Part shown: positions 4,231 through 64,000 of the stretch, piece by piece
Numbering within the stretch: position 1 is the stretch's first letter
How the letters are laid out: each line of letters opens with the position of its first letter
Source: Microcoleus sp.
GTDB taxonomy: Bacteria; Cyanobacteriota; Cyanobacteriia; Cyanobacteriales; Microcoleaceae
DNA length: 64,000 bases
Assembly: GCA_042408215.1 (NCBI GenBank)
Contig: JAYFMW010000028.1
Location: 192,001 to 256,000 of the forward strand
Reading direction: 5' to 3'
Notes under the pieces: generated by a model
What the model was told of the DNA's origin: nothing
Database searches by the model: none
Seen by the model: the letters and a program-made list of their open reading frames with translations, nothing else
Translations under genes and position numbers: made by a program

Positions 4231-4605
4231 CAGAAAATTGGGCGGAGCGAAGCGCAGGGTTGAAACCCCGTCCTAAAAGGACGGCTTTGTTTGATTCGAT
4301 AAATTAGTTGCCTACCTCTTGCGAGGTGGAGGGGTATGGTTGCCCCTCCCTTGGAGATATGGTTGTCTCCATTTTTTCCCTTTCGGGTAATGTTCGCTTC
4401 GCCAATGTTATAAGAGCTTTTTACGCTGAAAGCACTGTTCCAGTGACCTTAGAACTGTTTAACTAGCAGCGACAGAGCAAGGGACTAGCGTCGCATCCCA
4501 GGGTGTCTTGACTCAAATAACGTAGTCAGCTAAGACTTAGGCTGGTCAGAATGGCTTGTTTGATTACTCTTGCAAGCCCCGTCCCTTAAGGGCGGGGTTC
4601 CTGAC
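4231..4605 (-). mobile_element. Non-autonomous IS200/IS605 (IscB-type) element carrying only an omegaRNA
   Basis: End hairpin CCCCGCCC-TTAA-GGGACGGGG with terminal GTCA at 4605; the other end CCGTCC-TAAAA-GGACGG closely resembles the tnpB element left end at 50768-50808; no ORF inside. Confidence 0.8.
4375..4605 (-). ncRNA. HEARO RNA / IscB omegaRNA scaffold
   Basis: Minus strand reads GTCAGGAACCCC..GACCAGCCTAAGTC..ACTACGTT..GACACC..GGATGC..GCTAGTCC..CTCTGTCG..GTTAAACAG..AACATTGGCGAAGCGAACATTACCCGAAAGG, the block order recognised as HEARO/omegaRNA; 3' boundary approximate. Confidence 0.85.
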
Positions 4606-9626: not shown

Positions 9627-9815
9627 AGTTTGCGGTTGACGGTTGACTGTTGTCTGTTGGCGGTTGACGGTTGACTATTGTCTGTTGACTGTTGTCATTC
9701 CCAATGCCCAATTCCCAATGCCCAATTCCCAATGCCCAATTCCCAATGCCCCATGCCCAATTCCCAATGCCCCATGCCCCATGCCCAATGCCCCATGCCC
9801 CATGCCCCATGCCCA
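9627..9815. repeat. STRR runs (GGTTGAC/TGTTGAC, CCCAATG/CCCAATT/CCCCATG)
   Basis: Directly visible. Confidence 0.9.
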
Positions 9816-9877
9816 ATATAAACTAGGGTTCCAAATGTATCATCTGGAACCCTAGATTTATTAAGATATTTTAGTAG

Positions 9878-10819: not shown

Positions 10820-11103
10820 CAGTTGGGAATTGGGAATTGGGAATTGGGAATTGGTCATTGGTCATTGGTCATTGGTCATTGGGAATCGGGAATTGGTCAT
10901 TGGTCATTGGTCATTGGTTATTGGTTATTGGTTATTAAAGTTTGTAGTAAGGACTTTCTACTAACTAATGACCCTTCGACTACGCTCAGGGCACCGCTAC
11001 TAACTAATGACTAATGACTACTGACTAATGACTACTGACTAATGACTAATGACTAATGACTACTGACTAATGACTAATGACTAATGACTGCTGACTAATG
11101 ACT
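10820..11103. repeat. STRR runs (TTGGGAA, TTGGTCA, TGACTAA) with a CCCTTCGACTACGCTCAGGG palindromic unit
   Basis: Directly visible; a related reverse unit CCTGAGCGAAGTCGAAGG lies near 41916. Confidence 0.85.
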
Positions 11104-12493
11104 ACTTTAATCCCGATCGCACGGGTTCGACAGGAGCCTCAGCATTAACTGGTTCTCCTGCCTCTTTCACGCGCTGCAATTTAGCTCCCAATTTTTGCAG
11201 TTTCGCCTCAAACTGCTCGTAACCACGGTCTAAATGCTGCAAACTGCTGATTGTGGTGACACCATCGGCTGCAAGTCCCGCCAGCACCAAAGCCGCCGAA
11301 GCCCGCAAATCTGTTGCTGTGACCGGCGCTCCCGATAGCCGCGACACCCCGCGCACCACAGCCACATTGCCTTTAACGCGAATGTCCGCGCCCATGCGAT
11401 TGAGTTCGGCTACGTGCCGCAAGCGGTTCTCAAAAACTGTTTCATTAATTATGCTGTCGCCCTCGCTCATAGTTAGCAAAGCCATAAACGGAGCTTGCAT
11501 ATCTGTGGGGAAACCTGGGTAAGGCAGAGTTTCGATGTCTGTAGCTGTATGAATCCGGCCTGGAACTATCCGCAAAATGTCGGGAGATTCGACAATAATT
11601 TGCGCCCCCATTGTCTGCAACTTGGCAATTAAGGCCGTCAGGTGGTCGGGAATTACTGGTGATAAACTGATTTCGGAGTGAGTAATAGCTCCTGCTAGTA
11701 AAAATGTTCCTGCTTCGATGCGATCGGGAATAATTGAATAGTCCACGGAGTGAAGTTTGGGAACTCCCGAAATGACGATCGTATTAGTACCAGCGCCCTG
11801 AATTTTCGCTCCCATTGCGCGACAGAAATTCGCCAAATCAGCGACTTCCGGTTCTTGAGCCGCATTTTCAATGATGGTTTCTCCCTCGGCTAAGGTAGCA
11901 GCCATCATCAAAGTTTCCGTGGCTCCGACGCTGGGGTAATCTAAATAAATTTTAGCTCCCTGTAAACGACGGTTGGGCCCTTTGACGTAGGCGTGAACGG
12001 TGCCGTGGTCGATGTGGACTTCGGCGCCGAGGGCTTGCAGACCCCGAACGTGGAGCTCAACGGGCCGGGCACCGATGGCGCACCCACCGGGTAAGGGGAC
12101 TTTGGCAAATCCCAAACGTGCTAACAGTGGGCCAATGATAAAGAAGCTCGCCCGCAGTTGGCTGACTAATTCGTAGGGAGCTTGAGCATCTATGAGTTGG
12201 CTGGCATTGATCTCTAAAACGTCCCCATTTGCCTCTATTTTGACTCCTACAGCCGACAAAATTTGCCCCATGCGGGCGACATCGACTAGGGAGGGAACGT
12301 TGCGTAGACGGCAATCTTCCGGGCAGAGGATGGCACCGGCCATGACTACTAAGGCGGAGTTTTTGGCGCCACTGATTTTGACCTGTCCTTTGAGGGGCTG
12401 GCGACCCCAAATTTTTAATACTGGTTGGTCGCTTTCGGGTGAAGATGGAAGATTGGACGAGTTCTGAGCTGGTGTAATGGGTTTGCCCTCCAT
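11102..12493 (-). CDS. murA: UDP-N-acetylglucosamine 1-carboxyvinyltransferase
   Basis: [17 protein letters not shown] with catalytic Cys, [21 protein letters not shown]. Confidence 0.98.
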
Positions 12494-22192: not shown

Positions 22193-22542
22193 ATCCGTTA
22201 AATCCGTTACAAAATCCGTTGCCAAACATCCGTTAAATCCGTTACAAAATCCGTTGCCAAACATCCGTTAAATCCGTTACAAAATCCGTTGCCAAACATC
22301 CGTTAAATCCGTTACAAAATCCGTTGCCAAACATCCGTTAAATCCGTTACAAAATCCGTTGCCAAACATCCGTTAAATCCGTTACAAAATCCGTTGCCAA
22401 ACATCCGTTAAATCCGTTACAAAATCCGTTGCCAAACATCCGTTAAATCCGTTACAAAATCCGTTGCCAAACATCCGTTAAATCCGTTACAAAATCCGTT
22501 GCCAAACATCCGTTAAATCCGTTACAAAATCCGTTGCCGAAC
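22193..22542. repeat. 35-bp tandem repeat x10 (ATCCGTTAAATCCGTTACAAAATCCGTTGCCAAAC)
   Basis: Near-identical units without spacers. Confidence 0.97.
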
Positions 22543-27733: not shown

Positions 27734-27817
27734 CAGGCATTCCCAGTCAGATCCAGGCGAGCGATACATCTGCGTTTATCCGCGTTTATCCGCCTGCATC
27801 TGCGGTTAAAAAAATCC

Positions 27818-28882
27818 CTATAATATCGAACTCAACACCACCTCATTAGCAACAATCCAATCATAAACATCTTGCAAAGCAGCTTCCGGGCCGATCGCAG
27901 GTTGCCATCCAGTGCGCTCCATCACCCTAGAAGCATCAGTAATAAAAATCGGAATATCCCCCGCACGTTCCTCCAAAACAGGATGAATCGGAATCGATTT
28001 ACCCGTAATTTTTTGGCACAAATCAGTTGTTTCAACTAACGAAAGACTGTTGCTAAAACCGCCGCCAACATTAAATACTTCACCGTCAAATTCAGCAAAG
28101 TTTTCTAACTGATAATTAACTAACCTCAACAAGTCTTCAACGTGTAGTAAATCCCTAACTTGCTTGCCGCTGCCGCCAAAACCGATATAATTCAGTGACT
28201 TTTGAAAATAGTGCGCCGCCACCCACAAACCGCAAACTCCCTGATCGACTTTACCCATTTGCCAAGCACCTGTAATTAACCCGCAGCGGTTGATAATTGC
28301 TGGCACATTGTACGCTTCCCTGTATTCCTCAATCAGCAATTCCGAAGCTAATTTAGTTGCTCCGTAAAGTGAACGATGTCCTTTGAGAGGGAAGTCTTCA
28401 GAAATGCCTAATTCTGATATTCCAGGTATAGTTTGATTTGGGGCGATCGCAAATCGTGTCGGCAATTCCAATAACTTGATAGACTTGACAGTGGCGATCG
28501 GATAAACTCGACTCGTAGACAAAAACAACAAACTCGCACCAGTTTGTCTCGCCAACTCCAAAACATTCACAGTACCCAGTAAATTCGTCTGCAAAACATA
28601 CTGAGGTGAACTAAAACCCGCCAGCACAGAAGGTTCCGCAGCACAATCGATAATGCAGTCAACATTCAGCGCAACGGGATCTAAATCTGCCGCTGTGCGA
28701 ATATCTCCATAAACAAACTGAATCCCGGAACTTTTAAGCCGAGGTAAATTCAATTCCGAACCCCGGCGGCGCAGGTTATCCAAACAAATTATCTGCAATT
28801 CCGGGTGAAGTTTCTTGAGGCCAATTGCCAAACAACTACCAATGAAACCCGCACCACCAACAATCAAAATTCTTTCAATCAT
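27818..28882 (-). CDS. NAD-dependent sugar epimerase/dehydratase (CDP-paratose 2-epimerase-like)
   Basis: GGAGFIGS, YGATK, QMGKVDQG, GSGKQVRDLLH. Confidence 0.85.
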   Translation of the reverse strand: MIERILIVGGAGFIGSCLAIGLKKLHPELQIICLDNLRRRGSELNLPRLKSSGIQFVYGDIRTAADLDPVALNVDCIIDCAAEPSVLAGFSSPQYVLQTNLLGTVNVLELARQTGASLLFLSTSRVYPIATVKSIKLLELPTRFAIAPNQTIPGISELGISEDFPLKGHRSLYGATKLASELLIEEYREAYNVPAIINRCGLITGAWQMGKVDQGVCGLWVAAHYFQKSLNYIGFGGSGKQVRDLLHVEDLLRLVNYQLENFAEFDGEVFNVGGGFSNSLSLVETTDLCQKITGKSIPIHPVLEERAGDIPIFITDASRVMERTGWQPAIGPEAALQDVYDWIVANEVVLSSIL

Positions 28883-33827: not shown

Positions 33828-34067
33828 GTTGTTATTTGTTAGTTGTTATTTGGGCATTGGGCATTGGGCATTGGGCATTGGGCATTGGGCATTGGGCATT
33901 GGTGATTTTAAATTACTGTTTGTGATGATTTTTGAGGGATTACCGATTACCGATTACCGATTACCAATTACCAATTACCAATTACCAATTACCCATTCCC
34001 CATTCCCCATTCCCCATTCCCCATTCCCCATTCCCCATGACCAATTCCCCATGACCAATTCCCCATG
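33828..34067. repeat. STRR runs (GGGCATT, ATTACCG/ATTACCA, ATTCCCC)
   Basis: Directly visible. Confidence 0.9.
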
Positions 34068-45785: not shown

Positions 45786-46825
45786 CAATTTGAACTCAAC
45801 TCTTGTCCCCCCCCTTATTAAGGGGGGCTAGGGGGGATCTCCGGGTTGAAAAACACGCCCTGGGGATTCTGTTTTTTGAGGTGGACTTACTTAATCCAAT
45901 TTGAACTCAACTCTTGTCCCCCCCTTATTAAGGGGGGCTAGGGGGGATCTCCGGGTTGAAAAACACGCCCTGGGGATTCTGTTTTTTGAGGTGGACTTAC
46001 TTAATCCAATTTGAACTCAACTCTTGTCCCCCCCTTATTAAGGGGGGCTAGGGGGGATCTCCGGGTTGAAAAACACGCCCTGGGGATTCTGTTTTTTGAG
46101 GTGGACTTACTTAATCCAATTTGAACTCAACTCTTGTCCCCCCCTTATTAAGGGGGGCTAGGGGGGATCTCCGGGTTGAAAAACACGCCCTGGGTATTCT
46201 GTTTTTTGAGGTGGACTTACTTAATCCAATTTGAACTCAACTCTTGTCCCCCCCTTATTAAGGGGGGCTAGGGGGGATCTCCGGGTTGAAAAACACGCCC
46301 TGGGTATTCTGTTTTTTGAGGTGGACTTACTTAATCCAATTTGAACTCAACTCTTGTCCCCCCCTTATTAAGGGGGGCTAGGGGGGATCTCCGGGTTGAA
46401 AAACACGCCCTGGGTATTCTGTTTTTTGAGGTGGACTTACTTAATCCAATTTGAACTCAACTCTTGTCCCCCCCTTATTAAGGGGGGCTAGGGGGGATCT
46501 CCGGGTTGAAAAACACGCCCTGGGGATTCTGTTTTTTGAGGTGGACTTACTTAATCCAATTTGAACTCAACTCTTGTCCCCCCCTTATTAAGGGGGGCTA
46601 GGGGGGATCTCCGGGTTGAAAAACACGCCCTGGGTATTCTGTTTTTTGAGGTGGACTTACTTAATCCAATTTGAACTCAACTCTTGTCCCCCCCTTATTA
46701 AGGGGGGCTAGGGGGGATCTCCGGGTTGAAAAACACGCCCTGGGGATTCTGTTTTTTGAGGTGGACTTACTTAATCCAATTTGAACTCAACTCTTGTCCC
46801 ACCCTTATTAAGGGGGGCTAGGGGG
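45786..46825. repeat. 110-bp tandem repeat, 9 full copies plus a partial copy
   Basis: Units start at 45790, 45901, 46011 ... 46781; each has a CCCCCCTTA-T-TAAGGGGGG hairpin; one G/T polymorphic site. Confidence 0.98.
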
Positions 46826-46873
46826 TATCGAATATCTGTCACAAACATTAATATAATTGCTATAAAAAGCGGA

Positions 46874-54772: not shown

Positions 54773-55507
54773 TTACCAATCTGGCGGCAAATTGTAATAT
54801 TCGAGAGTCGATCGATCTTTCAGCAATTCTTGAGTTTGCTCATCGACCCGAATCTCACCCTCAGCCAAAATTAACGCCCTTTGAGTCGTTTTCCCAATCC
54901 AATTCAAGTCATGGGAAGCAATCAAAATTATCTCGATCGGCAATTGCGACAAAACCTTAGCCAAATGCCTGCGCCACGAGGGATCTAGTCCATTTGTCGG
55001 CTCATCCAAAATCAAAATTGCCGGCTCTAATGCTAAAATAGCCGCTAGCGCTGCTAACCTTCTCTGACCCCCAGAAAGTTCGTGGGCCGAACGGTTGGCA
55101 AATTCGACTAAACCAAATTCTGCTAAAAGAGACAAAGAGCGATCGCGCGCCACTCCCAGCGGCACCCCATAATTGCGCGGCCCGAACATGACATCCTCTA
55201 AAATAGTTGGCATAAATAGCTGATCGTTAGCATCTTGAAAGCAAAATCCAATCTGCCTCCTTACTTCCGATAAATTCCCCTGTTCCAACTTTTTTCCCTG
55301 CACTCTAATCTCCCCAGATAGAGGCATTTTTAAGCCAATTAAGTTTTCTAGCAAAGTGCTTTTTCCCGCCCCTGTCAAGCCGAGTAGAGCAACTCGTTCT
55401 CCCGGTTGTAAGGTAAAGGAAATTCCAGCCAATACTGGTTGTTGCTGCGGATAGCCGAATACTAAGTCTTGCACTTCGATTGTTGGCACTGATTGGAGAT
55501 TAGTCAT
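54773..55507 (-). CDS. cbiO: ECF transporter ATPase (CbiO/NikO)
   Basis: GLTGAGKST, FQDANDQLFMPT, LSGGQ, ILDEPT. Confidence 0.9.
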   Translation of the reverse strand: MTNLQSVPTIEVQDLVFGYPQQQPVLAGISFTLQPGERVALLGLTGAGKSTLLENLIGLKMPLSGEIRVQGKKLEQGNLSEVRRQIGFCFQDANDQLFMPTILEDVMFGPRNYGVPLGVARDRSLSLLAEFGLVEFANRSAHELSGGQRRLAALAAILALEPAILILDEPTNGLDPSWRRHLAKVLSQLPIEIILIASHDLNWIGKTTQRALILAEGEIRVDEQTQELLKDRSTLEYYNLPPDW

Positions 55508-55673
55508 CCGATTTTAGATTATAGATTTGAGATTATTCAAGAATTGCGACCGCGAATCAATCCCTTCCCAGGTCGAACGGACGCTACCCTACTGCCCTGG
55601 CTGTTGCTCTAGTCAGGGAAATTTTACTTGATTGAAATAAAAAAAAATCGCCATTTTTTTTAGGGTTAAACCC

Positions 55674-55788
55674 TTGACTCTCAGGATTTAATCAAGTACA
55701 ATCTAATAATGGGAGTGGTGGCATTTTTTTTATTTGTGCCACCACTCCCATTATCTAAAATATACCACAAAAAATCCACCAACGTCAA
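55674..55788. promoter_or_regulatory. Face-to-face sigma70-like promoters flanking an 18-bp perfect inverted repeat (repeated at +533 and +1066)
   Basis: Plus: TTGACT(55674)-N17-TACAAT(55697); minus: TTGACG-N18-TATATT with extended TG; IR ATAATGGGAGTGGTGGCA 55706-55723 / 55737-55754. Confidence 0.65.
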
Positions 55789-56961
55789 TAGGTAATCCTG
55801 CTTTTTTTGGGCCACAGATCAACGCAGCTCAACACTTCGGAAATTGCATCCGCGTTCATCCGCTGAGATCTGCGGTAAAAAACTCCCAATCCAACTATAG
55901 CACTCGCCCCATAGGTGAGGACAAATTCTGGTAGGGAGGGCACTGCTATCATCTTAGGAGAAATTTGGGTTCAGCAGTCAGTTCTGATGAGTTATTTGTT
56001 ATTCTCAAATTTACCAGCACCAATAACTAATAACTAATAACTAATAACTAATTTGAGATTTGAGATTATTCAAGAATTGCGACCGCGAATCAATCCCTTC
56101 CCAGGTCGAACGGACGCTACCCTACTGCCCTGGCTGTTGCTCTAGTCAGGGAAATTTTACTTGATTGAAATAAAAAAAAATCGCCATTTTTTTTAGGGTT
56201 AAACCCTTGACTCTCAGGATTTAATCAAGTACAATCTAATAATGGGAGTGGTGGCATTTTTTTTATTTGTGCCACCACTCCCATTATCTAAAATATACCA
56301 CAAAAAATCCACCAAAGTCAATAGGTAATCCTGCTTTTTTTGGGCCGCAGATCAACGCGGATCAACACTTCGGAAATTGCATCCGCGTTCATCCGCTGAG
56401 ATCTGCGGTAAAAAACTCCCAATCCAACTATAGCACTCGCCCCATAGGTGAGGACAAATTCTGGTAGGGAGGGCACTGCTATCATCTTAGGAGAAATTTG
56501 GGTTCAGCAGTCAGTTCTGATGAGTTATTTGTTATTCTCAAATTTACCAGCACCAATAACTAATAACTAATAACTAATAACTAATTTGAGATTTGAGATT
56601 ATTGCAGAATTGCGACCGCGAATCAATCCCTTCCCAGGTCGAACGGACGTTACCCTACTGCCCTGGCTGTTGCTCTAGTCAGGGAAATTTTACTTGATTG
56701 AAATAAAAAAAAATCGCCATTTTTTTTAGGGTTAAACCCTTGACTCTCAGGATTTAATCAAGTACAATCTAATAATGGGAGTGGTGGCATTTTTTTTATT
56801 TGTGCCACCACTCCCATTATCTAAAATATACCACAAAAAATCCACCAACGTCAATAGGTAATCCTGCTTTTTTTGGGCCACAGATCAACGCAGCTCAACA
56901 CTTCGGAAATTGCATCCGCGTTCATCCGCTGAGATCTGCGGTAAAAAACTCCCAATCCAAC

Positions 56962-57094
56962 TATAGCACTCGCCCCATAGGTGAGGACAAATTCTGGTAG
57001 GGAGGGCACTGCTATCATCTTAGCAGAAATATCGTCACAGCAGCGCCCACTCTACTGCTGTTACTATCTCTTAACTGCCCAGGCGGTTGCTATA
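56962..57094. mobile_element. TA-bounded MITE, complete only in repeat copy 3
   Basis: TATAGCACTCGCC..GGCGGTTGCTATA imperfect TIRs. Confidence 0.6.
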
Positions 57095-57101
57095 GAATTC
57101 A

Positions 57102-57205
57102 TACCAAATCCGCTGACCTAACCCCCCCTTTTTAATAAACCGCGAAGACGCGAAGGACACAAAGAAGAGGAGGAAGATCAGGGGGGTGTAGAGCCGGATT
57201 TGATA
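57102..57205. mobile_element. TA-bounded MITE-like element
   Basis: TACCAAATCCG..CGGATTTGATA TIRs around an AACCGCGAAGACGCGAAGG core. Confidence 0.6.
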
Positions 57206-57286
57206 TCAGAAGTCAGTTGTTATTAGTTATTTGTTATTATCTCATTTACCAGCACCAATAACTAATAACCAATAACCAATAACCCA

Positions 57287-57943
57287 TTACAATTTACCAT
57301 AAGAAGCTATGGTTAATCCGGCAGCCATTAACATTGTTACTGTCAGCCAGAGTCGCTCTTTTGGTGTCGATTTTGAGTCGTTCGGCAAACTTCCTTGATA
57401 GCCGCGAATTAGCATGGCTGCATGAACTCTCTCAGCCCGATCGAGACTTCGCAAATAAAGCGCTCCGATCATGGAAGCACTGGCGTATCTCAGCCATCCA
57501 CCCGTACCCGATAAGCCTCGTAGTTGAGCCGATCTTTTCATGCGGCTGACTTCGGCTAGCAAGATTTCTAAGTATTGTCCCGCTAAAAGCACAATCTCTT
57601 GTAAGCCTGCCGGTAGCGGCAATCCTTTGAGGGCTATGCCGAAACTGTGCGGCGGCAAGGTTAGCAGAAAACTGTTCATAATTAGCAGACAAATTAGGGA
57701 ACGTACCAACAGAAAACTCGCACGTTCCCAACCTTGCGGTAGCACTAATAAGGAGAGAAAAATTAATTCTGCTCCTAACAGTTGTACTAAGGTTCGCAGA
57801 GGCGCTCTCAGCCACAATGACCACACAAGTGCGATCGCCCCATAAATTCCCAGCCACAGCCAAGCGCCTGTCTTCATAAAACCAACGCCAATCACAATTG
57901 TGAGAGACAGTCGCAGTCGAAAAGGTATGGAGAATTTAAGCAT
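57287..57943 (-). CDS. cbiQ: ECF transporter T component (CbiQ/NikQ)
   Basis: AQLRG and RSLDRAERVHAAMLIRGY motifs; overlaps the cbiM stop. Confidence 0.9.
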   Translation of the reverse strand: MLKFSIPFRLRLSLTIVIGVGFMKTGAWLWLGIYGAIALVWSLWLRAPLRTLVQLLGAELIFLSLLVLPQGWERASFLLVRSLICLLIMNSFLLTLPPHSFGIALKGLPLPAGLQEIVLLAGQYLEILLAEVSRMKRSAQLRGLSGTGGWLRYASASMIGALYLRSLDRAERVHAAMLIRGYQGSLPNDSKSTPKERLWLTVTMLMAAGLTIASYGKL

Positions 57944-58862
57944 CTTTAGGTTTAACCAACTGAGCAATCCCAAAAGCCGCGCCGAAACTCACAGCCGAGC
58001 CGAAAAGTCCAGCAATGCTAGTACCTATAGGCTGTTCTTCTAATCCTTTAACTTTGTAATCTGCTAAAGGAGAGGGATTCTCGATCGCAGCAGCTTCTTG
58101 ATCTTTAAAACCGTATTTTTCCGCTACCGCTTCTAACCCGTCAGGCCAACTTGAAGCGAACAGCGACAGCACACCACTAATTAATAAAACCCCAATTACT
58201 GGCACTAACCATTTCTGCAATTGTGGCTGTTCTCCTGGTAACAAATCCGGCCGTACTTTGACGAGATAAGTTAAAACACTGCCTGTAATTAGCCCTTCGC
58301 CAAGGCCGATTAAAATATGAACACCTACCATTGCTGGCAATGCAATATTAAGTGCTACTGTTCCAGAAATTGCCAGTTCGATCGCCACACAAATCGAAGC
58401 AGCCACAACACTGAGGGCGGCTGCAATCCCTGCGGCTAAGGGCAAACGATTTCTGGAGCCTCCCAACAGTCGCTGCAATGGCTGCAACAGCCACCAGCCC
58501 ACCCAAATTCCGACTAGCCCCATATTAAAAATATTGGCTCCCAGGGCGGTGATACCCCCATCGGCAAACAAAACGCTCTGAATTATAAAAACCGTACTCA
58601 TCGCCAGAGTTGCCGCCCAAGGGTTCCCTAAAACCACAGATGCTAGCGCGCCTCCTAACAAGTGCCCGCTGGTGCCGCCTGCTACGGGAAAGTTAATCAT
58701 CTGAGCCGCAAACACGAAAGCTGTGGTTAAACCCATGATTGGGGCTTGTCGCAGCCCAAGACTTTCGCGCGTTCGATTCAAGGCAACTGCAATTACTGCT
58801 GCACTTGCTATGCCGGTGGCAATGGCTACGGGCGGTGAAAGAAAGCCATCAGGTATGTGCAT
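57936..58862 (-). CDS. cbiM: ECF S component CbiM/NikM fused to a PDGLE (NikN-like) domain
   Basis: MHIPDGFL metal-binding N-terminus, GTSGHLLG, ADGG; FASSWPDGLE. Confidence 0.92.
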   Translation of the reverse strand: MHIPDGFLSPPVAIATGIASAAVIAVALNRTRESLGLRQAPIMGLTTAFVFAAQMINFPVAGGTSGHLLGGALASVVLGNPWAATLAMSTVFIIQSVLFADGGITALGANIFNMGLVGIWVGWWLLQPLQRLLGGSRNRLPLAAGIAAALSVVAASICVAIELAISGTVALNIALPAMVGVHILIGLGEGLITGSVLTYLVKVRPDLLPGEQPQLQKWLVPVIGVLLISGVLSLFASSWPDGLEAVAEKYGFKDQEAAAIENPSPLADYKVKGLEEQPIGTSIAGLFGSAVSFGAAFGIAQLVKPKDA

Positions 58863-61511: not shown

Positions 61512-61946
61512 ATGAAAGAACTTGACGATAAAAAAACCCAGGAACTGCTATGTACCATCATGGAATGGGAACTAGCAGGAGTCGTGCGCTACACCCACTA
61601 TGCACTCATGGTGACAGGGCCAAACCGGATTCCCATCGTGCAGTTTTTTCAAGCACAAGCAACCGAATCCCTACTCCACGCCCAACAAGCCGGAGAAATT
61701 TTAACAGGTTTAGACGGACATCCCAGCCAGAAAATTGCTCCCATAGAAGAAACCTACAAACACTCCATCAAAGACTTGTTAGAAGAAAGCTTAAATCACG
61801 AGAAAAAAGCGCTCGACAAGTACAAATCATTACTTGAAGTCGTCACCGACTCCAGCGTTTATCTAGAAGAATATGCCCGCACCCTGATTGGACAAGAAGA
61901 ATTGCACCAAGTAGAACTGAAAAAAATGCTGCGGGATTACAGTTGA
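61512..61946 (+). CDS. Ferritin-like/bacterioferritin-family protein
   Basis: Di-iron pattern E(WELAG), ESLLH, E(HEKKA), EELH. Confidence 0.9.
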   Translation: MKELDDKKTQELLCTIMEWELAGVVRYTHYALMVTGPNRIPIVQFFQAQATESLLHAQQAGEILTGLDGHPSQKIAPIEETYKHSIKDLLEESLNHEKKALDKYKSLLEVVTDSSVYLEEYARTLIGQEELHQVELKKMLRDYS

Positions 61947-62681
61947 GTTAGTCATTAGTCCTTAGTCCTTAGTTACTCCCGAACCGCATTAAGAGTACCT
62001 AATCCTTTTCTTCTTTCTCTTCCTTCGCGTCCTTCGCGCCTTCGCGGTTCAATAATAAAAGGACTCAGGACTAACCACAAATTAGCAGTTATCAAAAAAT
62101 GAACTTTACTGAAGCCATCCCAACATTTGTAATCACCCTCCGCGAAGGCGTAGAAGCCGCCTTAGTCGTCGGAATAGTCCTAGCTTGCTTAAAAAAAGCA
62201 GAGCAAAGTCACCTCAATTCTTGGGTTTATACAGGTATCGGAGCCGGCATTGCTGCTAGCGCTTGTGTAGGTGCATTATTCAATCAGTTACTCCAAGTAG
62301 AACTGAAAAAAATGCTGCGGGATTACAGTTGAGTTAGTCATTAGTCCTTAGTCCTTAGTTACTCCCGAACCGCATTAAGAGTACCTAATCCTTCTCTTCT
62401 TTCTTTTCCTTCGCGTCCTTCGCGCCTTCGCGGTTCAATAATAAAAGGACTCAGGACTAACCACAAATTAGCAGTTATCAAAAAATGAACTTTACTGAAG
62501 CCATCCCAACATTTGTAATCACCCTCCGCGAAGGCGTAGAAGCCGCCTTAGTCGTCGGAATAGTCCTAGCTTGCTTAAAAAAAGCAGAGCAAAGTCACCT
62601 CAATTCTTGGGTTTATACAGGTATCGGAGTCGGCATTGCTGCTAGCGCTTGTGTAGGTGCATTATTCAATCAGTTACTCCA
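61907..62681. repeat. 386-bp tandem duplication (61907-62292 / 62293-62678)
   Basis: Ferritin 3' end + intergenic region + FTR1 5' end repeated; 3 SNPs seen. Confidence 0.97.
62099..62332 (+). pseudogene. Chimeric duplicate: FTR1 N-terminus fused in frame to the ferritin C-terminal 12 aa
   Basis: MNFTEA..REGVE..NQLL + QVELKKMLRDYS. Confidence 0.85.
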
Positions 62682-63441
62682 CGTACTCTCAACATCAAAT
62701 CAGCCTTACGCACCAGTAATCAAGCAATTGCTCGAAGGTTCTCTGGGAATTGTCGCCATAGTAATGCTAAGCTGGATGCTAATTTGGATGACTCAGCAAG
62801 CGCGCTTTCTCAAAGCTGAAGTGGAAGGAGCCGTTACAGCAGCTTTGAAAGAAAATACTAATGCTGGCTGGGGCGTATTCGGCTTAATTTTGATCGCTGT
62901 ACTTCGCGAAGGTTTTGAAACAGTTATATTTGTCAGCGCTCAATTTCAACAAGGTTTCACTCCGGCTTTAGGTGCTTTGGGCGGTTTGCTTGGGGCTGCA
63001 ATCATTGGCGCGCTAATCTTCAAGTGGGGTGTCAAAATTGAGCTCCGCCAGTTTTTCAAGTTTATGGGGATTTTGTTGCTGCTAATTGTAGCGGGTTTAG
63101 CAGTATCTGCACTCAAACATTTTGACCAAGCTGCTGCCATTTTGTCCCAGACGGATAGCAAGTATGCAGGGATTTGTGTTTATTTCGATCGCACTTCACA
63201 ACTCCACTCCTGTATTTTAGGCCCGATGGTCTGGAATGCAGCCGCAATTTTGCCCGATCGCCAATTTCCCGGAATCCTCCTCAAAGCACTATTTGGCTAC
63301 AGAGAGCGACTGTATCTTTTGCAAGCCGTTGGTTATACAATATTCTTAGTCACAGTCGGCCCCCTTTACTTCCAAAAATTAGGCGGCCAGCCAAATGTTG
63401 CCAGCAAAATTACTGAGTCTGCTAAAGAGCAAGCCAGCTAA
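62485..63441 (+). CDS. ftr1: FTR1/EfeU family iron permease
   Basis: Two REGxE motifs (REGVE, REGFE), about 7 TM. Confidence 0.95.
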   Translation: MNFTEAIPTFVITLREGVEAALVVGIVLACLKKAEQSHLNSWVYTGIGVGIAASACVGALFNQLLHVLSTSNQPYAPVIKQLLEGSLGIVAIVMLSWMLIWMTQQARFLKAEVEGAVTAALKENTNAGWGVFGLILIAVLREGFETVIFVSAQFQQGFTPALGALGGLLGAAIIGALIFKWGVKIELRQFFKFMGILLLLIVAGLAVSALKHFDQAAAILSQTDSKYAGICVYFDRTSQLHSCILGPMVWNAAAILPDRQFPGILLKALFGYRERLYLLQAVGYTIFLVTVGPLYFQKLGGQPNVASKITESAKEQAS

Positions 63442-63553
63442 TTCTCGGTAGTTGTCCCGGCGGTCGGTTTTTTCGGTGATTTACCTCCAGGGCGAGGGCA
63501 AAATTTTACCCAGAGATAAAAAAAAATCGGCCCAAATTTTCGGGTTTTGGGAT

Positions 63554-63667
63554 TGACTTCTTGATATTTGTATGATACCATTAGATAATGGAAATATTGA
63601 CATTTTTAGGCACAAGTAGTCATACTCCCATTATCTAATTATACAGTCAAGAGCCAAAAAAAGCAAG
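63554..63667. promoter_or_regulatory. Diverged second member of the face-to-face promoter / inverted-repeat element
   Basis: Plus: TTGACT-N17-TACCAT; minus: TTGCTT-N18-TATAAT; IR ATTAGATAATGG..CCATTATCTAAT. Confidence 0.55.
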
Positions 63668-63899
63668 GGCTAACCCTCAAAAAAACCCAAATTTTTTTTT
63701 CTCCCTTTAACAATTTTTAACCCAATTGTCTAATTTTCGCCTTAAAGACAGCGCTCGACCTGGAACTCAAAGGAAGCAGACTATTGAATGTGCGTGACTC
63801 CAAAGCAAGCTCGACTAATTTGGCATCCCATCGAGGCCCAGTCGGCTCTCAAATTTCCCAGAGAAGCACAGTCGGAGCCGGTGAAAGCGCCCGCACATT

Positions 63900-64000
63900 C
63901 GATCGCCAATTTCCCGGAATCCTCCTCAAAGCACTATTTGGCTACAGAGAGCGACTGTATCTTTTGCAAGCCGTTGGTTATACAATATTCTTAGTCACAG
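63900..64000 (+). repeat. Second copy of the FTR1 3' region (copy of 63255-63355), running off the window
   Basis: CGATCGCCAATTTCCCGGAATCC..TTAGTCACAG identical at a 645-bp offset. Confidence 0.95.

Follow-up and report, generated by a model that had tools for sequence, protein, structure and literature searches.

The intergenic element described here, which occurs in four copies in a 64,000-nucleotide stretch of Microcoleus sp. DNA (contig JAYFMW010000028.1, positions 192,001 to 256,000; the whole stretch is referred to as the window), is reminiscent of the convergent antisense promoter pairs of the insertion sequence (IS) IS10, pIN and pOUT, and of phage 186, pR and pL. In these systems, promoters tens of base pairs apart face each other and give rise to transcripts with complementary 5′ ends (RNA-IN and RNA-OUT in IS10), one product is a stem-loop RNA, and the outcome is antisense pairing together with transcriptional interference. 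The Microcoleus element, in which two sigma-70-like promoters point into a single palindrome, may work most like these pairs. The IS10 and phage 186 pairs are asymmetric and control one adjacent gene, the transposase or the phage switch, whereas the unit described here is symmetric, its two predicted RNAs share the same hairpin, and it is tied to no gene family. The family to which it belongs is real, conserved, and apparently undescribed: literal strings from the element match no paper, searches for descriptions of such elements gave no match among the titles and abstract openings listed, and no such element is described, nor Microcoleus mentioned, in the accessible text of an RNA-structure screen of 202 cyanobacterial genomes (PMC12873609), the database and supplements of which could hold one.

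In sequence organization, the closest look-alikes appear to be promoter-bearing palindromic repeats such as the Correia elements of Neisseria, although the family fails those tests for a MITE (miniature inverted-repeat transposable element) that could be run. As described in the accessible parts of two reports, Correia repeats and promoter-bearing MITEs are short, intergenic, multi-copy inverted repeats that carry sigma-70 promoters, form an RNA hairpin, and can alter the expression of a neighboring gene (PMC2649163, PMC10969869). In Correia elements, the promoters lie at the ends and the elements are mostly upstream of genes, whereas here both promoters point inward at one hairpin and the copies are found at gene 3′ ends. 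Unlike Correia elements and MITEs, the family has no terminal repeats sharper than its core, no evident target duplication, and no sign of recent mobility, and its copies are orthologues in different species that evolve under purifying selection. A second comparison is provided by the single-stranded DNA promoters of plasmid leading regions, Frpo and ssi1-3, which, in the available portion of their description, form long, imperfect stem-loops in which −35 and −10 boxes are rebuilt by the arms (PMC12672017). In contrast, the family described here is dispersed on chromosomes and inherited vertically, with promoters directed at the loop and promoter spacers that are largely unpaired and of unequal length. 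Repetitive extragenic palindromic (REP) sequences and bacterial interspersed mosaic elements (BIMEs) share with the element a palindromic structure and an enrichment at the 3′ ends of genes and between genes that converge, but REPs, by the definition given in the part of PMC3733652 at hand, are 20-40 bp long with a GTAG or CGTC head, whereas the element is ~215 bp long, has no such head, and carries promoters.

Tandem arrays of noncoding units are also known from cyanobacteria. The accessible text on Trichodesmium erythraeum describes an array of seven units of 736-973 bp, each with a promoter and a duplicated 3′ part of the neighboring gene, that produces the most abundant RNA of the cell (PMC4143802), and in the corresponding text on the NsiR1 array of Nostocales, every unit of the repeat carries a promoter of its own (PMC6596454). 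The duplicated gene 3′ part makes the Trichodesmium array similar to the duplicated unit that holds E2, the diverged fourth copy of the element in the window. The likeness is one of described organization: the Trichodesmium and NsiR1 arrays are single loci, a convergent promoter pair is not among the features given in the accessible parts of these reports, and the present element is dispersed and single-copy in 53 of 60 intergenic regions.

Three copies of the element, E1a, E1b, and E1c, are located in the window at 55619-55815, 56152-56348, and 56685-56881 (minus strand, with the strand of the promoter termed P2 taken as forward) and match the family profile with nhmmer E values of 8e-52, 2e-52, and 8e-52, respectively. 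The central palindrome of E1a, 55706-55754, is composed of two 18-nt arms (55706-55723 and 55737-55754) that are 100% complementary and enclose a 13-nt A+T-rich loop; the same inverted repeat is seen again at +533 and +1066. The promoter with the long A/T tract, P1, lies on the window plus strand and reads TTGACT-17-TACAAT (55674-55702), and the opposite promoter, P2, reads TTGACG-18-TATATT with a TG ahead of the −10 box (55788-55759, minus strand). Each scores 10/12 against the sigma-70 consensus. The perfect 18-bp repeat and its facing promoters, reported in an earlier note made from the sequence alone, are therefore present as that note had described them. In E1b, the promoters are located at 56207-56235 (plus) and 56321-56292 (minus), and in E1c, at 56740-56768 (plus) and 56854-56825 (minus). 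Since the −10 boxes of P1 and P2 end 3 and 4 nt outside the palindrome, the starts, taken as ~7 nt past these boxes, are predicted to lie ~3 nt inside each arm. The entire window contains 24 sites that score at least 10/12, and face-to-face pairs of such sites 20-120 bp apart are formed only by the three E1 copies, compared with a mean of 0.13 pairs in 30 Markov simulations. An A9-TCGCC-A-T8 tract upstream of the P1 −35 box (55639-55661, plus strand) is conserved in the family and may be UP-element-like.

Folded as RNA, the 197-nt E1 element has energies of −64.5 and −59 kcal/mol on the two strands (z = −6.3 and −6.9). A terminator-like hairpin with a 9-bp stem followed by an A/T-rich tail, detected by a terminator scan on the plus strand, lies just upstream of every E1 copy (55595-55618 and the repeats at +533 and +1066), such that each 533-bp unit contains P1, P2, and one such hairpin, which could form the end of a ~440-nt P1 transcript from the preceding unit. 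A flanking motif, CCAGGTCGA, which the earlier note had listed as a shared feature, is rejected as part of the element: outside the window it is found near the element at one locus only (L113), and L022, the orthologue of the E1 locus, lacks it.

To place these copies in a family, species-representative genomes were scanned with a 20-base pattern comprising one hairpin foot and part of the other; the family counts, clusters, and context figures given below are all drawn from the matches listed in this one scan, which comprise at least 115 loci. When the hits were made into a family profile, 106 of the 115 loci listed matched it, as did all four window copies. To judge by record titles, all 106 come from cyanobacteria, filamentous ones and some others: many Microcoleus species, Tychonema, Lyngbya, Limnospira, Spirulina subsalsa, Prochloron, and cyanobacterial metagenome-assembled genomes. 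The nine non-cyanobacterial hits among the 115 do not match the profile and are rejected as members; of five that were viewed, three have no palindrome and two (Hymenobacter, L003, and Chloroflexia, L038) have unrelated palindromes that share a 13-mer. The Hymenobacter palindrome (~2990-3070 of L003) is long and perfect and carries the 13-base foot motif on both arms, with flanks unrelated to those of the cyanobacterial family. At least five to six exact-pattern hits per genome are observed in GLPB, A006_D1, Limnospira E05-005, and Lyngbya CCY1209. No half-elements, such as one arm preceding a gene, are present in the window, where the best additional nhmmer hit has an E value of 0.37 and falls within a coding region.

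The conserved element follows a common plan, a degenerate palindrome of ~215 bp. In the window plus direction, the left half comprises an A-run, TCGCC, and a T-run, a short G+C-rich motif, the −35 box, a 17-nt spacer, the −10 box, and 3 nt leading to the palindrome, and the right half comprises 4-5 nt, the mirror −10 box, a 17-18-nt spacer, the mirror −35 box, and a shorter A-run region. The palindrome itself accounts for 49 bp of the 215-bp unit, and its foot ATAATGGGAG and the complement thereof are almost invariant. Among 104 distinct sequences, the central unit is 52 nt long in 82, 53 nt in 15, and 51 nt in 7, and many family copies are perfect palindromes across the A+T-rich center. A second subfamily (14 of 59 representatives; Limnospira, Lyngbya, Prochloron, and others) has the P1 −10 box 16 nt from the arm and a different right arm, with the promoters still convergent. 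A third group consists of the hairpin only, without clear promoters, and forms tandem arrays at the three loci observed (L032, L006, and L108); compared with the main type, one base is lost in each arm, a compensated change. In one uncultured cyanobacterium, the hairpin foot recurs in arrays whose units measure 184-286 bp and number up to 11, with different flanks (L032 1457-5356, L006 28-1541, and L108).

E2 (63503-63704, minus strand) adopts the same plan with a diverged sequence, as established by a profile hit at 63676-63503 (E = 5e-21) and by alignment to E1. Its palindrome (63585-63634) is imperfect, and the stem pairs better as minus-strand RNA, which has G-U pairs where the plus strand has A-C. 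P1 of E2 reads TTGACT-17-TACCAT (63553-63581, plus strand), and P2 reads TTGCTT-17-TATAAT (63638-63666, minus strand), a hexamer type that is also found in the Limnospira/Lyngbya subfamily. The kinship and the TTGACT-17-TACCAT promoter proposed in the earlier note hold, whereas the minus-strand spacer is 17 nt rather than the 18 nt given there and the stem is not perfect.

Comparisons across the family show that the promoters are maintained. Flanking DNA groups the loci into 60 clusters, each of which was given one representative, 59 of them scorable. A sigma-70 score of at least 9/12 is reached by P1 in 57 of the 59 and by P2 in 46, compared with 153 of 1180 shuffled controls (13%). In each arm, the hexamers lie 16-18 bp apart and T1, A2, and T6 of the −10 box are kept, as tested for a sigma-70 promoter; nearly all representatives have a TAnnnT −10 box, with variation at the three inner positions only. 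The distance between the end of the P2 −10 box and the arm is 4-5 nt in 50 of 59 representatives, and for the P1 −10 box it is 3 nt in 38 and 16 nt in 14. Orthologue divergence was calculated as the mean pairwise difference per site in eight orthologous clusters of at least three species, leaving out positions fixed by the scan pattern. The four hexamers diverge by 0.093 and the two promoter spacers by 0.337 (Mann-Whitney p = 7e-18), the inner stem by 0.152 and the loop by 0.222 (p = 0.04), the A-run/T-run tract represented in E1 by 55639-55661 by 0.185, and the outer ends by 0.28-0.45. Judged by sequence comparison, these differences demonstrate purifying selection on both promoters and on the stem. 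The suggestion of the earlier note that the element is symmetric and noncoding, with a promoter geometry kept by selection, is borne out, and the hexamers, on whose conservation among copies the note had made that suggestion depend, are indeed conserved, with the −10 box at a fixed offset.

The element is an island of conservation, at orthologous sites, in otherwise unalignable spacers. In the three largest orthologous clusters, column identity is 0.63-0.9 within the element compared with 0.1-0.6 in the rest of the spacer, and in one of the three, the identity of the element equals or exceeds that of the adjoining coding DNA. Orthologous copies are more alike (identity 0.78, 159 pairs) than copies at different loci of the same genome (0.72, 53 pairs, maximum 0.82), and the conservation therefore does not come from homogenization among copies.

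These comparisons bear on whether the family is mobile. The earlier note had offered as an alternative a MITE formed from two head-to-head IS promoter ends, and the corresponding explanation would be a decayed, Correia-like, non-autonomous transposon with arms derived from promoter-bearing IS ends, which spread anciently and had some of its promoters co-opted. Such an origin would fit the many copies per genome at unrelated loci, the fact that the entire element is an inverted repeat, and the sigma-70 promoters that the accessible parts of PMC10969869 and PMC2649163 document well for bacterial MITEs. The genome of the window also contains IS200/605-type elements, as follows from the presence of a full-length HEARO RNA, a type of RNA that partners with IscB-type IS200/605 elements (4387-4605, minus strand, 167.6 bits). 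On the other hand, no transposase or recombinase was found by Pfam among the flanking open reading frames of 20 representative loci and five reading frames of the window, several of which have no Pfam match, and the copy preceding a transposase for which the earlier note had proposed to look is absent from those 20 loci. Near-identical dispersed copies are not seen, the paralogues being at most 82% identical (53 pairs), and plasmid and phage records contain no match to the element at E values up to 1e-3. The center and hexamers are best conserved and the termini worst, the reverse of the pattern of a MITE, and the hexamers are under purifying selection at orthologous sites. In paralogue alignments from three genomes, the ends are fuzzy A/T runs with no evident direct repeat, and no target-site duplication can be defined. 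Nothing points to recent transposition, the family does not fit a recently active MITE, and the alternative offered in the earlier note is not supported; descent from an ancient MITE is considered unlikely.

The hairpin is conserved as a structure as well. Across 41 sequences, 93.6% of the aligned stem cells are paired and five pairs are changed on both sides, giving a covariation score that none of 500 shuffles reaches; the covariation analysis proposed in the earlier note thus came out in favor of the stem. At the gathering threshold, Rfam models detect only the HEARO RNA and one tRNA in the window, both away from the element, and at E values up to 10, the element matches only generic microRNA-precursor hairpin models, far under their thresholds. 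Paired sense and antisense hairpin RNAs, as suggested in the earlier note, are plausible.

The reading preferred here, held with a confidence somewhat short of even, is that the element may be an old, vertically inherited, host-maintained convergent transcription module that produces two mutually antisense RNAs, each starting with a hairpin, and acts in cis at gene ends. If both promoters fire, each RNA would start 2-4 nt inside the stem and thus both would carry the same 5′-terminal hairpin. Hairpins at the 5′ terminus stabilize bacterial RNAs, and the hairpin would be expected to protect the 5′ end of each transcript. The two RNAs would be mutually antisense over ~45 nt and could pair there, and polymerases starting 42-45 bp apart would have to interfere with each other. 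At gene ends, each promoter would drive transcription against read-through from the opposite neighbor and lay an antisense RNA over the 3′ end of that neighbor. A gene located downstream in the same orientation would have the module as its promoter. Tandem copies would be secondary, arising by unequal recombination of the whole spacer and then being tolerated or kept for dosage.

Several observations weigh against this convergent transcription module. The start sites, the RNA ends, and the activity of both promoters are predictions. Because the hairpin-only group lacks clear promoters, the hairpin exists independently of them, and the compensatory changes in the stem could stem from correction of the palindrome at the DNA level rather than from selection on RNA. 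The asymmetry between G-U and A-C pairs is mixed, the P2 strand being favored in the lower stem and the P1 strand in the upper, with no clear transcribed strand, in a comparison partly biased by the scan pattern, which fixed one arm. An apparent folding advantage of the P2 strand (24 versus 13 copies, p = 0.04) is confounded by the way in which the copies were retrieved. In neither predicted RNA does RNAalifold detect conserved structure other than the central stem, and no conserved terminator follows either. At co-directional loci, P1 points with the genes in seven and against them in two, which is not significant.

Some of the same features would be accounted for if the element acts as DNA: a cruciform or single-stranded hairpin, for example a REP/BIME-like site for gyrase or topology at converging genes or a single-stranded promoter rebuilt from the arms, with the facing double-strand promoters a by-product of symmetry. 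The two strands fold about equally well (−26.1 versus −25.3 kcal/mol for the family, figures that the scan pattern biases), many copies are perfect palindromes through the A+T-rich center, hairpin-only arrays without promoters exist, and the family is enriched between convergent genes (11 of 20 loci; none divergent). When E1 is folded as a single strand, its two −35 boxes pair with each other, as do its two −10 boxes, and stem-loops that rebuild −35 and −10 boxes are known from plasmids, according to the available portion of PMC12672017. However, the spacers differ in length (17 versus 18 nt) and sequence and evolve freely, such that each arm looks selected as a promoter in itself, and the variable −10 positions obey the TAnnnT rule of double-strand promoters. 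By reasoning, plasmid single-strand promoters must point outward, whereas those of the element point into the loop. The GTAG and CGTC head motifs by which the accessible text of PMC3733652 defines REPs are absent. A DNA-level structural site is accordingly regarded as quite unlikely.

The neighbors of the family are unrelated housekeeping genes, among them purM, hemA, gshB, recG, argJ, ilvH, lysC, a PALP-domain pyridoxal phosphate-dependent enzyme, RNase J, lptF/G, and porins. At 20 independent loci, the flanking genes are convergent in 11, co-directional in 9, and divergent in none, and gene 3′ ends make up 31 of the 40 flanks. In the window, the E1 array is located within a row of metal transporter genes on the minus strand, cbiM (57936-58862; Pfam CbiM, 1.3e-63) and cbiQ (57287-57973; CbiQ, 1.9e-19) upstream of the array and a cbiO-like ABC ATPase (54773-55507; ABC_tran, 3.7e-33) downstream. 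This cbiM-cbiQ-cbiO row (54773-58862) is thereby split between cbiQ and cbiO by 1.8 kb of repeated spacer, and the same split, with two units, is observed at L022. P2 of each E1 copy points to cbiO. The distance from P2 to this gene is 244 nt, and under the convergent transcription module P2 would serve it. E2 is faced by the 3′ end of an FTR1-family iron permease gene (62485-63441, plus strand; FTR1, 1.9e-53).

The prevalence of gene 3′ ends among the flanks would also be expected of a bidirectional terminator or 3′-end stabilizer hairpin serving the flanking genes, in which the promoter-like hexamers are secondary. The stem is very stable, and at several loci (purM and recG), the element starts −6 to +17 nt from the stop codon, leaving no room for another terminator. 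Nevertheless, no U-tract follows the stem on either strand, the next 14-15 nt being mixed A and U, and the palindrome was not listed by the terminator scan. The FTR1 gene has its own T-run hairpin ahead of E2, and the strong selection on four hexamers at fixed spacing would be left unexplained. A terminator function is therefore judged very unlikely.

With three tandem units of ~530 bp and one distant copy, the window also recalls the arrangement of the long direct repeats of Escherichia coli, a type I toxin-antitoxin system in which one promoter yields the mRNA of a small hydrophobic peptide and the other an antisense RNA. The plus-strand RNA of E1 would start at the ATG of a 28-codon hydrophobic frame, and the frame is present in 27 of 121 sequences. 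Its length, however, varies from 3 to 63 codons, centers of 51, 52, and 53 nt shift the frame, and in E2 one strand has a different frame, of 16 residues, whereas the other meets a stop after three codons. Where residues are conserved, they fall on the hexamers of the opposite promoter. With no conserved frame, a small peptide or type I toxin was rejected, and a toxin-antitoxin function is extremely improbable.

Both elements of the window are associated with tandem duplications. The E1 array comprises three 533-bp units that fill the cbiQ-cbiO spacer (55518-57117), with units 1 and 2 98.9% identical and unit 3 ~90.5% identical to them. E2 is located in a 645-bp duplication unit together with the 3′ end of the FTR1 gene (63255-64000); 63255-63355 equals 63900-64000 at 100%, and the second copy runs beyond the end of the window. 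Four of the 35 internal intergenic regions of the window carry tandem duplications of at least 100 bp, one of them holding E1, and E2 is in a fifth duplication at the window edge. Among the fetched loci, tandem duplications of at least 100 bp are found in 7 of 60 element-bearing intergenic regions and in 2 of 105 others (Fisher p = 0.012), an enrichment somewhat inflated by the fact that arrays offer more chances to match the exact pattern. In one of the seven, L014, the duplicated piece excludes the element. The enrichment in tandem duplications for which the earlier note had proposed to test is thus observed, but it is not the rule, since 53 of the 60 regions have none. The related proposal that the element promotes local amplification is weakly supported: the junctions of the 533-bp units lie at gene edges and not at the hairpin, and hence the whole spacer was copied.

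At L022, from a relative with 92% identical flanks, two units are found at the same place. Unit a of L022 is the counterpart of window units 1 and 2 (93%), and its unit b that of window unit 3 (90%), which points to an old duplication kept in both lineages and a newer one added in the window lineage. The locus therefore offers a dated case of stepwise tandem amplification, in which two units are older than the divergence from the UBA9251 lineage and the third came later. When the remainder of the 533-bp unit was considered as a possible further dispersed repeat, recurrence was limited to a 53-nt piece (55847-55899; also 27778-27821 of the window and 435-487 of L091, where it lies beside an element copy), which appears to be another small dispersed repeat.

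The window as a whole is unusually rich in tandem repeats of short and long period. A 110-bp unit is repeated 9.5 times at 99% identity at 45786-46829, with a C7...G6 palindrome in each unit, and is unrelated to the E1/E2 element. A 35-bp unit is repeated 10 times at 22193-22542, and many arrays have 7-bp units (1914-2122, 9700-9817, 10823-11104, and 33850-34066). A 386-bp unit is present in two copies immediately upstream of the FTR1 gene (61907-62685, 98% identity), and its CTTCGCG-rich motif recurs inverted beside the E1 array (57129-57171 compared with 62402-62444).

Filamentous cyanobacteria have unusually large noncoding fractions and produce very abundant RNAs from repeats. Against this background, a more far-reaching reading, which is regarded as doubtful, is that the element might be a host-kept, self-contained convergent promoter cassette, with two strong promoters firing into one palindrome, that would serve as a bacterial generator of double-stranded RNA by making two perfectly complementary RNAs that both open with the hairpin, and would insulate gene 3′ ends. 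Being strongly transcribed and palindromic, it would also seed or stabilize the stepwise tandem amplification of its spacer. If so, it would be the dispersed counterpart of the hugely expressed tandem noncoding RNA arrays of Trichodesmium.

The family constitutes a concrete, widely conserved, and strongly constrained noncoding module. Its architecture predicts primary 5′ ends at the feet of the stem on both strands, mutual interference between the two promoters, and effects on read-through at the 3′ ends of the neighboring genes. If the RNAs are not real, the conservation would reflect selection on a DNA palindrome that mimics promoters. If they are real, the family would be a novel kind of insulator or antisense generator acting in cis, and would offer cyanobacterial engineering a natural, compact part with strong promoters.

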